The notes under the pieces were generated by a model that ran no database searches, was not told where the DNA came from, and saw nothing but the letters and a program-made list of their open reading frames with translations. Source: Candidatus Caldarchaeum sp. (GTDB taxonomy: Archaea > Thermoproteota > Nitrososphaeria_A > Caldarchaeales > Caldarchaeaceae). Taken from it: a stretch of DNA of 64,000 nt. Positions 26,843 to 32,285 of the stretch are shown in pieces (position 1 is the stretch's first letter; every line of letters starts with the position of its first letter). The stretch covers positions 74,709 to 138,708 of the forward strand of contig JAWAFZ010000001.1 in assembly GCA_038890155.1 (NCBI GenBank). The letters are read 5' to 3'. Made by a program: the position numbers and the translations under genes.

Positions 26843-26997
26843 TGCTTGGGGTCGGCATGGCTCTTCCTGCATCACGGCTCAGTCTGGGGCAGCAGCCTCA
26901 TCCCCCATGGAGACACATTAGAGTCATCTAATATCTGTTGCATCGATGCCCAAAACCTTAAAACCAAGCGGCTCGGCTATTTCGAACCGTGATTGAA

Positions 26998-27105
26998 ATG
27001 AAAGGACACCTATACAAGCATGCAGAGGAAGAGGAGTTCGAAGAAGAGTTCGAAGAAGAAGACTTCGAGGAGGAGGAATGGGAAGAAGAGGAAGAGGATT
27101 TCTAG
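26998..27105 (+). CDS. Candidate 35-aa hyper-acidic peptide (unannotated small ORF)
   Basis: ATG ORF encoding MKGHLYKHAEEEEFEEEFEEEDFEEEEWEEEEEDF. The SD-like GTGAT sits 5 nt upstream. Below the ORF-track size cutoff. Confidence 0.3.
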   Translation: MKGHLYKHAEEEEFEEEFEEEDFEEEEWEEEEEDF

Positions 27106-27384
27106 CTACTCGCCTGTTTCCTCTCCTTCCTTTTTATGAGTGTAGAGCACGATCGACGTTACTGCGCTCTTGACGCCGTGAACCGACAAAATCTTCTCCT
27201 TGAGGAAATCCCTGAAGCTAGCTATGTCTCTGGCCACGACCAGAACAATAAGGTCGAACTCTCCCGTCACCTCGTAGACGTCAATTACCTCTGGAAGCTT
27301 GCTGATATTCTTCGCAACCTTCTCTATCAAGTTAGACTCGGCGAAGATGTGGATTATGGCCCTGACTCCCGGAGCGGACATCAC
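27106..27384 (-). CDS. Stand-alone RAM (Lrp/AsnC C-terminal ligand-binding) domain protein
   Basis: 92 aa matching only the AsnC_trans_reg/RAM domain (no HTH). 4-nt overlap with the upstream APC transporter gene. Confidence 0.7.
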   Translation of the reverse strand: MMSAPGVRAIIHIFAESNLIEKVAKNISKLPEVIDVYEVTGEFDLIVLVVARDIASFRDFLKEKILSVHGVKSAVTSIVLYTHKKEGEETGE

Positions 27385-29280: not shown

Positions 29281-29826
29281 TCAACCGTGCAGCCTCAATA
29301 TAAAACAGTACAACCTTTCGAAGAAAAGACTATATTCCACCCTCTTCACGAGCCTGAACCCCAACCCCTCAGCATAGTTCAACAGCTTGTCGACGCCCGA
29401 CAGGTTCGACGCCAACAGAACAGCTGTACCACCAGCCTTCAGACAAACCCTAGCGGCCTTCAAGACCTCTGCGGCCGTCTCCCAGCCCTCCGGGCCTCCG
29501 TGGACAGCTGGGTCGTGGAACTCCGGCTCCTCGGGCAGGTAGGGAGGATTGGCTACGACAACGTCGAAAGCGTTGGGGCGAAAGGGGAGGATGCTCGCGT
29601 TGACAAAGTGCACGCATCCCTGTAGGTTCTTAAGCCTTTCAACAGCCTGCTTCAGGGCCGCTGAGTCGATGTCGGTGCCGACGGCTTCGAACCCTTCCTC
29701 AGCCAGCACCCTGAGGATGTAGCCCGTGGAGCAGCCGACCTCCGCCGCCAGCCCTCCCCCACCCAAACCTCTTACAACGTCCTCCAGCAGAAAGCTGTCC
29801 TCAGCCGGCTCGTAGGGCTCGTTCAT
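29281..29826 (-). CDS. Class I SAM-dependent methyltransferase, Mtq2/PrmC-like (release-factor glutamine N5-MTase family)
   Basis: SAM-binding VGTDID and the NPPY motif (VVANPPY). Probable ATG at 29826, forming an ATGA overlap with the aspS stop. Confidence 0.7.
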   Translation of the reverse strand: MNEPYEPAEDSFLLEDVVRGLGGGGLAAEVGCSTGYILRVLAEEGFEAVGTDIDSAALKQAVERLKNLQGCVHFVNASILPFRPNAFDVVVANPPYLPEEPEFHDPAVHGGPEGWETAAEVLKAARVCLKAGGTAVLLASNLSGVDKLLNYAEGLGFRLVKRVEYSLFFERLYCFILRLHG

Positions 29827-31112
29827 GGATAGACTCTCGTGGGCGTCCGGGGAAACATCGCGGCAGACCTGATGTTCTTGAGCCCCAGAAGCCACTGGAC
29901 AAGCCTCTCCAAGCCAAGGCCAAACCCGCTGTGCGGCACGCTCCCATACTTCCTCAAATCTAGGTACCAGGAGTAGTCGGACGCGTCAAGCCCCTCCTCC
30001 TCAATCCTCGACAGCAGCTCGTCGTAGTCGTGGATACGCTGACCGCCGCCCACGACCTCGCCGTAGCCTGATGGGGCGAGGAGGTCGGCTGAAAGGGTGA
30101 GCTCCTTGTTAGACGGGTCGGGCTTGTGGTAGAAAGCCTTCGCCTTCTTGGGAAAGTGGGTGAGGAAGAATGGTTTGTCGAACTCCATCGTAAGAACCCT
30201 CTCCTCGTCAGCCCCCAAGTCTGACCCCCAGATCACCGAAACACCCTTCCTCTCCAAAAGGTCGAGAGCCTCCGAATACTTGACCCTTTCGAAAGGAGGC
30301 TCCAGCATCGAGTAGTCGACCTTCCTGTCGAGAAGCCTGAGCTCGTTGACAGAGTCCTGGAGAGCAGCTGTGGATGCTTCCGAGACAAGCCGCTCAACAA
30401 CCCAGGTGAGGTCTTCAATCCCCGAAAAAGCCATCTCCCCCTCGACGTGCCAGAACTCCGTCAAGTGCCGGCGGGTCTTGCTCCTCTCAGCCCTGAAGCT
30501 GGGCTGGACGCTGTAGACCTTCTCCAGCGAGTATATAGCCGCCTCCTGGTAGAACTGGACGCTCTGAGTGAGGTAGACGGGCTTGCCGAAGTAGTCGACT
30601 TGGAAAAGCGTCGCCCCGCCCTCGACGGCGGCCGTTATGAAGGTCGGGCAGTGGACTTCGACGAAGCCCTCTCTCTCGAACCAGCTTCTCAAGTGGTGTA
30701 TGAGCTTGGACCGGAAACGTAGGACGGCGGCTGTCTTCGGCCCTCTTATTGCAAGATGCCTGTTCTGGCTCACGACCCTGGGGCCTACTCCTTTCTTTAG
30801 GGGATACTCTCCGAGAGACTGCGAAATGACCTCGACGCTTGTGCAGCTTACTTCGACCCCGCCCGGAGCCCTCGGGTCGTGCCTAACGATTCCAGAAACC
30901 TTTAACGCCGACTCCCTGCCAGCCGCCGCAACCCTGCTGAAGGTCTCTTCGGAGACGTTGGGTGTTCTTACCGTGGCCTGAACCAACCCCGTCGAGTCTC
31001 GGAGGTCTATGAAAATCAGCCTTCCGTGCAGCCTTTTAGACCTAAGCCATCCAAGAAGCTCGACAGACGTCCCGTCGGCCAGCTTGCCAACCTCAGCCGA
31101 TTGAACCCTCAT
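29823..31112 (-). CDS. aspS: Aspartyl-tRNA synthetase (archaeal type)
   Basis: N-terminal OB anticodon-binding domain; class II motifs (FRAE.....HLTEFWHVEGE; GGGQRIHD; GSVPHSGFGLGLER); 429 aa. Confidence 0.9.
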   Translation of the reverse strand: MRVQSAEVGKLADGTSVELLGWLRSKRLHGRLIFIDLRDSTGLVQATVRTPNVSEETFSRVAAAGRESALKVSGIVRHDPRAPGGVEVSCTSVEVISQSLGEYPLKKGVGPRVVSQNRHLAIRGPKTAAVLRFRSKLIHHLRSWFEREGFVEVHCPTFITAAVEGGATLFQVDYFGKPVYLTQSVQFYQEAAIYSLEKVYSVQPSFRAERSKTRRHLTEFWHVEGEMAFSGIEDLTWVVERLVSEASTAALQDSVNELRLLDRKVDYSMLEPPFERVKYSEALDLLERKGVSVIWGSDLGADEERVLTMEFDKPFFLTHFPKKAKAFYHKPDPSNKELTLSADLLAPSGYGEVVGGGQRIHDYDELLSRIEEEGLDASDYSWYLDLRKYGSVPHSGFGLGLERLVQWLLGLKNIRSAAMFPRTPTRVYP

Positions 31113-31146: not shown

Positions 31147-31482
31147 CTACATCACGGCGGTTCCTTCTTTGACTTCCCTCTCAGGGACCAGGGGAACTAC
31201 TTTGTCTTCGTCCTCGACTGCTGTCAGGAGCATGGCTTCCGACACCTCCCCCCTTATCTTCCTAGACTCCAGGTTTGTTGCGAAGGCGAACAACCTGCCC
31301 TCAAAGTGCTGGGGCGGGTAGAGCTGAGCCAGGCCTGTGATAACCCGTTTACGTGTGTCGCCGAAGTCGACCTCAAGCCTGAGGAGCTTGTCGGAGTTGG
31401 GAACCCTATCAGCCTTGACAACTCTCCCGACCCTCATCTCAATTCTCTTGAACTCGGCCATCGATACCATGGCCGAAAACAC
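31147..31482 (-). CDS. tRNA-binding domain protein (Trbp111/CsaA/EMAP-II OB-fold)
   Basis: MAEFKRIEMRVGRVVKA...KL..L.VDFG tRNA-binding OB-fold signature. Likely ATG start at 31470 or 31461 (the track start is GTG). Confidence 0.75.
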   Translation of the reverse strand: MFSAMVSMAEFKRIEMRVGRVVKADRVPNSDKLLRLEVDFGDTRKRVITGLAQLYPPQHFEGRLFAFATNLESRKIRGEVSEAMLLTAVEDEDKVVPLVPEREVKEGTAVM

Positions 31483-31538
31483 GCAGTTTCCTCTAAAAAA
31501 AGTTATGCACGTGCTTTTTCTGCAATTTTTTCAGAAAG

Positions 31539-31546
31539 TTTTTTAT
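31539..31546 (+). promoter_or_regulatory. TATA box upstream of the basic mini-ORF
   Basis: TTTTTTAT about 31-38 nt upstream of the ATG at 31577, consistent with a short-leader archaeal promoter. Confidence 0.4.
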
Positions 31547-31576
31547 CCCTCGAAACCTACATTATTGTGAAGAAAT

Positions 31577-31690
31577 ATGGCGAGGAAGGCAAAGAAAGCA
31601 GCGAAGAAGAAGACCGCCAAGAAGGCCAAGAGGGCTAAGAAACCAGCCGCTCCCAGCCCTGCTGAAGCACCGTCGGCTTCACCGGGATAA
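31577..31690 (+). CDS. Candidate 37-aa Lys/Ala-rich basic peptide (unannotated small ORF)
   Basis: ATG ORF encoding MARKAKKAAKKKTAKKAKRAKKPAAPSPAEAPSASPG. Own TATA element; intergenic between two minus-strand genes. Confidence 0.35.
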   Translation: MARKAKKAAKKKTAKKAKRAKKPAAPSPAEAPSASPG

Positions 31691-31715
31691 GCCTCTAAGC
31701 CAATCCTCTTTCTTT

Positions 31716-32285
31716 TTATTCCTCCTCAACCCACTCCCAAAACCTTCTCCTAGGCTGCGGGGGAGCTGGCCTGGGTGTCATCAGCTCCTTGACTCCAGCC
31801 GTCACCAGGGAGGAGGCTGCGGGCGTTAGGAAGATTAGGACGAAGTCGAGAGGGCCTTCGAGGAGGATGGTGGACGAGACCCATGACAGGTAGTGCACCC
31901 AGTTCACCGCCCCGGGCAGGCGTGGCAGGACGTACATCGACAACCCTATGAGGGCTAGGTAGACTAGCGACGATGTTATTAAGGCTGGCGGGATGGATGT
32001 TTTGGCCCTCCTTGAAAGTAGGCCCATCACCACGCCTGCGGCAGCCCACGACAGGAGCGGGGCTGGACCAAGCTTCACCGCGTTCCCGCTGGGAGCTAGG
32101 GTCGACTCCAAGCCGAGGGCTGAGGAAAGGGGTGTTAGGAGGGTTGAAACGCTTGACAGCACGACTGCCAGCACCGACACCTGGAAGCTTGACGGCGGGA
32201 TTGTCTGACCGGCTAGGCTTGATAAGACGAGGCCGGCCAGCACCAGCGTAGACAAGCCTGCTGCAGAGGCTGTTAGGGTGTTCAC
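31716..32285 (-). CDS. Integral membrane protein of unknown function
   Basis: About 5-6 predicted TM helices, Ala/Leu/Ser-rich, Pro/Arg-rich C-terminus; no recognisable motifs. Confidence 0.5.
   Translation of the reverse strand: MNTLTASAAGLSTLVLAGLVLSSLAGQTIPPSSFQVSVLAVVLSSVSTLLTPLSSALGLESTLAPSGNAVKLGPAPLLSWAAAGVVMGLLSRRAKTSIPPALITSSLVYLALIGLSMYVLPRLPGAVNWVHYLSWVSSTILLEGPLDFVLIFLTPAASSLVTAGVKELMTPRPAPPQPRRRFWEWVEEE

Follow-up and report, generated by a model that had tools for sequence, protein, structure and literature searches.

Is the short open reading frame (ORF) on the plus strand at 31577..31690 of a Candidatus Caldarchaeum contig a gene, and if so, what might its lysine- and alanine-rich product do? 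The question arose from a first-pass annotation of the window, a 64,000-nt stretch of contig JAWAFZ010000001.1 from an uncultured hot-spring Candidatus Caldarchaeum metagenome-assembled genome (MAG) of the Aigarchaeota/Caldarchaeales. Read from the sequence and the ORF list, the coordinates, the length of 37 amino acids (aa), the ATG start and the translation MARKAKKAAKKKTAKKAKRAKKPAAPSPAEAPSASPG were exactly those quoted there. Two minus-strand genes (31147..31470 and 31716..32285) flank the frame, and the 245-nt spacer that they leave is relatively AT-rich, with a G+C content of 0.43-0.48 versus ~0.58 in the flanks. Its length alone is within chance, given the 799 six-frame ORFs of at least 20 aa in the window. 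Among these, its Lys-richness from the start is matched only by the frame 27020..27139, a by-product of a GAR repeat. The ORF stands above chance because 12 syntenic orthologues share its start, stop, frame, promoter and terminator. We put the probability that the 37-codon frame is a real coding gene at about 0.93.

Conservation and transcription signals of the micro-gene

Orthologues were recovered by synteny, with the gene of an asparaginyl-tRNA synthetase (AsnRS)-like enzyme as first anchor and then with the tRNA_bind protein, a Trbp111-like protein with an oligonucleotide/oligosaccharide-binding (OB) fold. The AsnRS-anchored synteny was broken beyond the genus in L013-L015. Twelve distinct orthologues of 36-42 aa occupy the same slot in the same orientation between the tRNA_bind and membrane-protein genes. 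Besides the peptide of the window they comprise MARKAKKAGKKKTAKKAKRAKKPAAPSPAEAPPASPG and MAKKGKKAAKKKPAKKAKRAKKPAAPSPAEAPTAPSG (37 aa each), MAKKAKKAGKKKAAKKAKKPKKPTAPAPAEGAPATA and MAKKKAAKKKAAKKAKKAKKPAAPPAPAEAGAQPSA (36 aa each), MAKKKTAKKAAKKKTAKKAKKAKKEPAPPATEAPPAGAA (39 aa), MAKKAAKKKTAAKKKRAKAKRAKKVAPPAPPAPAEGAEAAG (41 aa), MARKKAKARKGGKKKARKAARPAKKAPAPAPAEEAGTGAA and MAKKKAKAKKAGKKTRKTAKPKKAKPAGAAPAEAAGLGAA (40 aa each), MAKAKKKAARKGGKKKKTTRRKRAKAAKPAAAAAGEAVAASG (42 aa) and two further peptides of 40 aa each. One of these last two, labelled L097, was taken from L012, in which a single residue is different (AAPAAG for ASPAAG).

The 12 genomes have diverged considerably in the flanks of the micro-gene, with identities down to 65% for the tRNA_bind protein and to 38-42% for the membrane protein. 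The ATG, a stop codon (TAA, TAG or TGA) and an intact frame are present in all 12 orthologues. When seven of the loci were aligned as nucleotides, with no guidance by codons, the gaps inside the ORF measured 3, 6 and 12 nt, and gaps of 1-2 nt were found exclusively outside it. Changes were strongly in excess at third codon positions (e.g. 4/2/12 and 7/6/22 changes at codon positions 1/2/3), and the approximate ratio of nonsynonymous to synonymous substitution rates (dN/dS, Nei-Gojobori) ranged from 0.10 to 0.24 for pairs with unsaturated dS. A frame that is not conserved in relatives, which the first-pass annotation had named as an argument against its own proposal, was not what this comparison revealed. 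The micro-gene is located on the plus strand and is under purifying selection.

Transcription signals are conserved along with the frame (Table 1). The element TTTTTTAT, said to lie 31-38 nt upstream of the ATG, does occupy -38 to -31 counted from the A of the start codon. The motif cAGAAAr/cCGAAAa followed by TTTTTTA(t/a) is kept in 12/12 orthologues, with variation in the neighbouring bases, and the T6A TATA element begins 38-43 nt ahead of the ATG in every one of them. Judged by the archaeal geometry of transcription factor B recognition element (BRE) and TATA box, this block probably functions as a promoter, with a predicted transcription start at ~31568-31571. Nearer to the ATG, at about -6 to -13, each of the 12 orthologues carries GAAG, GAGG, GAGC or GAGA. 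Downstream of the ORF, a run of at least four T starts 8-24 nt past the stop, again in 12/12 orthologues. Oligo-T is a known termination signal of archaeal RNA polymerase, and by analogy the T-rich tract is likely to be a transcription terminator. These signals support independent transcription of the micro-gene, from an archaeal-type promoter of its own placed at the distance of a short leader.

The first-pass annotation had also considered that the region might be only the promoter or 5' untranslated region (UTR) of the tRNA-binding-protein gene. The region is more than that. The tRNA-binding-protein gene has a TATA box of its own: TAAAAAAA at 31494-31501 reads as a minus-strand element 24-31 nt from the tRNA_bind ATG at 31470, a spacing of typical leaderless geometry, and the micro-ORF starts 75 nt beyond it. 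The ~50-nt block 31494..31546 (TAAAAAAA-GTTATGCAC-...-TTTTC..CAATTTTTTCAGAAAG-TTTTTTAT) was conserved above the synonymous sites of the ORF in the seven aligned loci, and a third T-run (31526-31531) is situated between the two TATA boxes. This divergent block may be a shared transcription-factor or other regulatory site.

Table 1 Features of the micro-gene and its surroundings (window coordinates)
Feature	Position	Strand	Remarks
Micro-protein coding sequence	31577..31690	+	TAA stop included; 3.76 kDa, pI 11.4, net charge +12
Residues 1-22, MARKAKKAAKKKTAKKAKRAKK	31577..31642	+	Polycationic Lys/Ala segment with 13 K/R; predicted alpha-helix
Residues 23-37, PAAPSPAEAPSASPG	31643..31687	+	Pro/Ala-rich non-helical tail; invariant Glu is residue 30, codon 31664-31666
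BRE-like AGAAAG	31533-31538	+	Immediately 5' of the TATA box; read from sequence
Putative TATA box, TTTTTTAT	31539-31546	+	38 to 31 nt before the ATG
Purine-rich box, GTGAAGAAAT	31567..31576	+	Just 5' of the ATG; presumed short 5' UTR or weak Shine-Dalgarno-like element
T-rich tract, TCTTTCTTTTTATT	31707..31720	+	T5 at 31713-31717; overlaps the stop codon of the convergent membrane-protein gene
Divergent-promoter block	31494..31532	.	TAAAAAAA (31494-31501), then GTTATGCAC and TTTTC..CAATTTTTT
Antisense Ala/Phe/Leu-rich peptide, MAFLAVFFFAAFFAFLAIFLHNNVGFEG	31543..31629	-	TTG start
Trbp111-like tRNA-binding OB-fold protein (PF01588)	31147..31470	-	Stand-alone, 107 aa; divergent to the micro-ORF
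AsnRS-like class IIb synthetase gene	29823..31112	-	Next after the tRNA_bind gene
Hydrophobic membrane protein	31716..32285	-	189 aa, without Pfam family; convergent, stop 25 nt past the micro-protein stop

Coding strand and non-protein alternatives

Pooled over seven pairs, the proposed frame had a ratio of the proportions of nonsynonymous and synonymous differences (pN/pS) of 0.27, and four of the remaining five frames had ratios of 1.3-1.9. The antisense frame also gave a low value (0.33), because third codon positions are common to the sense and antisense frames. This frame is mostly open across the Lys-rich part in 7/7 orthologues examined, and one gene caller translated through it (P0013), as would be expected if the actual product were a hydrophobic, small membrane or toxin-like peptide with the Lys/Ala frame as its mirror image. 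However, the antisense frame has neither an ATG nor a conserved start, and stops break it in the tail region in 4/7 of the orthologues. The decisive test against antisense coding makes use of the geometry of the two frames, in which the wobble base of a sense Lys codon is the wobble base of the next antisense codon. All 95 AAN codons in the eight orthologues analysed end in A or G and thus encode Lys. Where the antisense wobble is four-fold free, the ending is likewise a purine in 43/43 cases, whereas pyrimidines account for 44% at the four-fold sites of the ORF itself. Furthermore, the conserved ATG, stop, TATA box and T-run are all in plus-strand orientation, and the Pro/Ala tail with its invariant Glu is conserved in the sense reading only. 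We give next to no credence to an antisense product. As a type I toxin-like small hydrophobic peptide the antisense frame was rejected in view of its missing conserved start, its tail stops and the purine-only AAN wobble. It could further be argued that the locus encodes no functional protein at all, and that the frame either arose by chance within conserved DNA of a promoter/5' UTR or small RNA, or is a regulatory leader ORF rich in Lys codons, for which the act of translation would count and not the peptide made. The 60 nt upstream of the ORF are indeed highly conserved regulatory DNA, chance short ORFs are as common as stated above, and several NCBI annotations skip the micro-ORF. These arguments are opposed by the frame-preserving indels, by purifying amino-acid selection that includes the non-Lys tail, and by the ATG and stop, which have been retained in 12 lineages whose synonymous sites are saturated. 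A leader would have no plus-strand gene downstream to regulate, since beyond the stop there are a T-run and then a convergent gene; the tRNA_bind gene is served by its own TATA box. Rfam 15 yielded no match at the gathering threshold in the window and none at E <= 1 in 31440-31760, and the predicted transcript folded no better than shuffled sequences (z = -0.8). We regard a locus without a protein product as highly improbable and retain the reading as a plus-strand coding gene.

Distribution and annotation of the micro-gene

A neighbour-joining tree with midpoint rooting, built from the two flanking proteins, grouped the 12 ORF-bearing genomes in one clade and placed two genomes without the ORF as the outgroup. 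Both outgroup lineages keep the membrane-protein gene beside tRNA_bind with no Lys-rich ORF between them. The spacer measures 89 nt in Calditenuaceae archaeon HR02 (L087) and 643 nt in a Nitrososphaerota MAG (L089/L090), where the sole ORF is an unrelated acidic one of 59 aa. As far as sampled, the micro-gene is restricted to the Caldarchaeum clade of the Caldarchaeales. The most parsimonious course of events would be a gain at the base of this clade; loss or relocation in the outgroups is a possible alternative, because sequence searches cannot see the low-complexity peptide. Its absence at the slot in two outgroups speaks against its being part of the core chromatin or ribosome of the Caldarchaeales.

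Several observations concern the neighbouring genes. The acidic ORF of L089/L090 (2388..2567, minus strand; MVLEELKESCPDADTFLPYVEGF...) contains Cys and was called as a gene by NCBI. The tRNA_bind gene is located directly upstream of the AsnRS-like gene in the Caldarchaeum clade and precedes DnaJ in the two outgroups. The 189-aa hydrophobic protein is linked to tRNA_bind across the Caldarchaeales, outgroups included, and evolves fast, with identities down to 29-42% where tRNA_bind keeps 61-70%.

Searches beyond the syntenic slot returned no further relatives. A protein homology search with the peptide padded by XXX gave 39 word candidates, none of them scoring; an exhaustive phmmer search against 1.84 billion representatives gave 0 matches, and an exact look-up of eight orthologue sequences found none in the protein collection, from which peptides this short seem to be absent. 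Peptide-pattern scans of metagenome and viral contigs (600 stretches each) produced no confirmed case. The promoter motif TTTTTCAGAAARTTTTTTA occurred at 120 or more unrelated AT-rich loci in metagenomes, none of which had a Lys-rich ORF among the matches listed. Controls revealed how little such searches detect: tblastn with default SEG or composition-based statistics missed even a 95%-identical orthologue, and phmmer at that database size needed at least 84% identity to bring an orthologue to E < 1e-3. The empty homology searches and pattern scans are thus uninformative on a wider distribution, and synteny alone worked. Literature searches on small archaeal proteins rich in Lys and Ala found no precedent. 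The ARC hibernation complex of archaea (bioRxiv 10.64898/2026.01.19.700304) was considered and dismissed as unrelated, as it consists of CBS-domain proteins.

The description of the peptide as unannotated applied to part of the records only. Four NCBI MAGs, identical or one base different over the 1.2 kb compared, have no gene call at the micro-ORF site. For the family the description fails: the identical 37-aa product was called in two Logan assemblies, and orthologues in more distant relatives were called as coding sequences of 40-41 aa in three NCBI assemblies and one Logan assembly.

Gene calls in the vicinity showed peculiarities as well. The Logan gene call P0013, a 'tRNA_bind' protein of 170 aa, is over-extended through the antisense of the Lys/Ala ORF (LAFFFAVLPLAFFFAG...). 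The extension corresponds to 31471..31660 on the minus strand of the window, and an artefactual N-terminal extension of this kind can mask a micro-gene. The Trbp111-like OB protein itself (107-111 aa; homologues P0004, P0009, P0014, P0016 and P0017) is mislabelled in several public records as 'methionine--tRNA ligase' or 'MetRS beta chain', despite the lack of a catalytic domain.

The first-pass annotation had contrasted the basic peptide with an acidic one 4.5 kb upstream. The contrast is real, and the acidic peptide is likewise conserved. This hyper-acidic micro-ORF, M(K)GHLYKHAEEEEFEEEFEEEDFEEEEWEEEEEDF-stop, occupies 26989..27105 on the plus strand between MoeA-like and AsnC-type genes, with a probable ATG at 26998. 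Its frame and an ATG are conserved in L007-L012, where it follows the pattern AEEEE(E)FEEE[F/W]EEEDFEEEEWEEEEE(E)F-stop. The Caldarchaeum clade thus carries conserved polycationic and polyanionic micro-proteins 4.5 kb apart. The basic frame 27020..27139 (MQRKRSSKK...) was discarded as a paralogue of the Lys/Ala peptide; its start is lost in several relatives, and it is a by-product of the GAR repeat with the conserved acidic frame.

If real and expressed, the micro-gene would encode a protein present throughout a clade of thermophilic Aigarchaeota and missed by current resources. The product is shorter than 50 aa and of low complexity, was skipped in the annotation of several NCBI MAGs, is absent from the large protein collections queried and is undetectable by SEG- or composition-corrected BLAST or HMMER. 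As a minimal archaeal polycationic peptide of 3.8 kDa, which can be synthesised, it would offer a cleanly testable case. It is also a candidate for the lineage-specific, possibly de novo, origin of a micro-gene in an intergenic spacer.

Proposed function and comparison with known systems

The amino acid composition of the product is extreme. Over the 12 sequences nearly all residues are A (154), K (146), P (53), G, R, T, E, S and V, with K and A together accounting for 65%. Besides these there are the initiator Met, one Q and one L; aromatic residues, Cys, His, Asn, Asp and Ile are absent. The orthologues have a net charge of +11 to +15, a pI of 10.6-12.0 and a mass of 3.6-4.2 kDa, and are devoid of bulky hydrophobic residues apart from the one Leu. 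Since there is no hydrophobic core, a globular fold is impossible for the peptide. When the 12 sequences are aligned, M1, A2, K7, K11, K12, K21, A25 and E30 prove invariant. A single-sequence AlphaFold2 model predicted a helix for residues 2-21, with a predicted local distance difference test (pLDDT) value of ~85 for the block, and a coil for the tail (pLDDT ~70). Nothing significant was found in Pfam, NCBIfam or the PDB sequences; the best match was Stm1_N (E = 2.5).

From these properties a mode of action can be proposed. The BRE/TATA pair 31-38 nt upstream of the ATG would drive synthesis of an mRNA with a very short leader that ends at the oligo-T tract. In the translated peptide, a helix-prone Lys/Ala segment of 22-27 residues, charged on every face, would lead into a flexible tail of Pro and Ala that contains one invariant Glu. 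The peptide would bind electrostatically and without sequence specificity to a polyanion, DNA or structured RNA (rRNA/tRNA). Neutralisation of the backbone charge could then stabilise or compact the nucleic acid, in its duplex or tertiary structure, in a thermophile. Non-specific nucleic-acid binding is favoured by the 13 positive charges within 22 residues and by the lack of a hydrophobic core. Based on the composition and on the behaviour of H1 tails and bacterial Lys/Ala proteins, we judge the chances of action via polyanion or nucleic-acid binding to be slightly better than even; that the helix forms upon binding, that the ligand is a nucleic acid, and what the peptide does in the cell are likewise presumptions.

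Some points weigh against this reading. Function is here deduced from composition, and other possible roles of low-complexity Lys/Ala sequences are polyphosphate binding, protein-protein interaction and membrane-surface binding. Simple charge neutralisation does not account for the invariant Glu or for the conservation of the Pro/Ala tail. The dN/dS values are approximate, as the alignment is low-complexity and indel-rich. The family is limited to a single clade, and two outgroups lack it at the syntenic slot. A different task is suggested by the genomic position, namely that of an RNA-side specialist, either a trans-acting tRNA-binding helper of the Trbp111-like OB protein and the AsnRS-like enzyme or a ribosome-associated micro-protein. 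The micro-gene and the Trbp111-like gene have a highly conserved divergent promoter region in common in 12/12 genomes, the gene of the class IIb synthetase comes next after the OB gene, and in Arc1p a lysine-rich middle domain beside the same OB fold is needed for tRNA binding (PMC11286949). The Stm1_N match, weak and non-significant, is to a Lys/Ala-rich ribosome-binding segment. Yet gene adjacency alone is weak evidence, and the OB and membrane-protein genes remain linked in the two outgroups without the peptide, so that the linkage predates the peptide or survives without it. The spacer could merely be the place where the micro-gene arose or was lost. In addition, the peptide gene is on the opposite strand to the OB gene and unfused, and the Stm1_N match is far below threshold. 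We consider such an RNA-side role unlikely, and the Pro/Ala tail with its invariant Glu is explained by it as little as by general nucleic-acid binding. Bolder and more doubtful still is the idea that a free-standing 'histone-tail-like' factor of minimal size originated de novo in this spacer, at the root of the Caldarchaeum clade. It might help to condense histone-based chromatin in the manner of a linker histone, as the first such partner in archaea, or it might stand in for the lysine-rich domain of Arc1p in trans and hand tRNA to the OB protein and AsnRS. The equally conserved hyper-acidic micro-protein 4.5 kb away might buffer it.

With polyanion binding as the preferred mode of action, the peptide can be set beside several known systems. 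Yeast Arc1p and metazoan AIMP1 have a lysine-rich RNA-binding segment juxtaposed to a Trbp111/EMAPII-type OB fold; in yeast Arc1p, deletion of the lysine-rich middle domain, which binds RNA non-specifically, abolishes tRNA binding (PMC11286949). In Caldarchaeum the corresponding elements are genomic neighbours, an aminoacyl-tRNA synthetase gene included. Unlike in Arc1p/AIMP1, the basic segment is encoded by a separate gene on the opposite strand and there is no glutathione S-transferase (GST)-like domain. The basic segment is not fused N-terminally to the OB fold, and the 107-aa OB protein has no basic extension. The likeness is a lead only. The position beside a Trbp111-type protein and an AsnRS-like synthetase nevertheless raises the question whether split basic-plus-OB modules preceded the fused Arc1p/AIMP1.

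Sul7d/Sac7d, Cren7, CC1, Alba and eL41 are small and basic like the peptide; these proteins bind nucleic acid, are abundant in thermophilic archaea and are often missed or lineage-restricted. None of their Pfam models was matched by the peptide even at E <= 10. Sul7d/Sac7d, Cren7, CC1 and Alba are folded globular domains (SH3-like, OB-like or Alba fold), whereas the peptide is a predicted single helix. For Sul7d, Cren7, Alba and the histone fold, neither a Pfam match (E <= 10) nor a PDB sequence match was obtained, and hydrophobic core residues are lacking. eL41 is rich in Arg, Lys, Trp and Met and forms an Arg/Lys helix of ~25 aa, in contrast to the Lys/Ala composition of the peptide; Ribosomal_L41 was not matched in Pfam or NCBIfam at E <= 10.

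The likeness to H1/HC1-type tails proposed in the first-pass annotation holds for composition (net charge +12, Lys/Ala helix and Pro/Ala tail) and does not extend to homology or to the defining domains. Linker_histone (PF00538) was not matched by hmmscan against Pfam at E <= 10, and the AlphaFold2 model with its one helix and coil contains no winged helix. The Pfam models Hc1 and HC2 were not reported for four orthologues at E <= 10. The S/TPKK motif occurs in 0/12 orthologues; the Lys/Ala/Pro composition constitutes a resemblance to the H1 tail and not homology. In their low-complexity Lys/Ala(/Pro) make-up, the H1 C-terminal domain, chlamydial Hc1/Hc2, the mycobacterial HupB tail and Pseudomonas AlgP are nevertheless like the peptide. 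They too are very positively charged, lack a hydrophobic core and are predicted to be disordered or to become helical when bound, and the expected common mode would be non-specific charge neutralisation of polyanions. Unlike the H1/Hc1-type proteins, the peptide lacks a globular domain of the winged-helix or HU type, as well as any S/TPKK or KPAA repeats; it is free-standing, archaeal and 36-42 aa long, with a Pro/Ala tail and an invariant Glu. In its proposed action the peptide would thus resemble a polycation of the H1-tail/Hc1 type, while it appears to belong to none of the families tested. Small basic proteins are a familiar category, of which the Caldarchaeum peptide represents a free-standing, minimal, archaeal and clade-restricted version.

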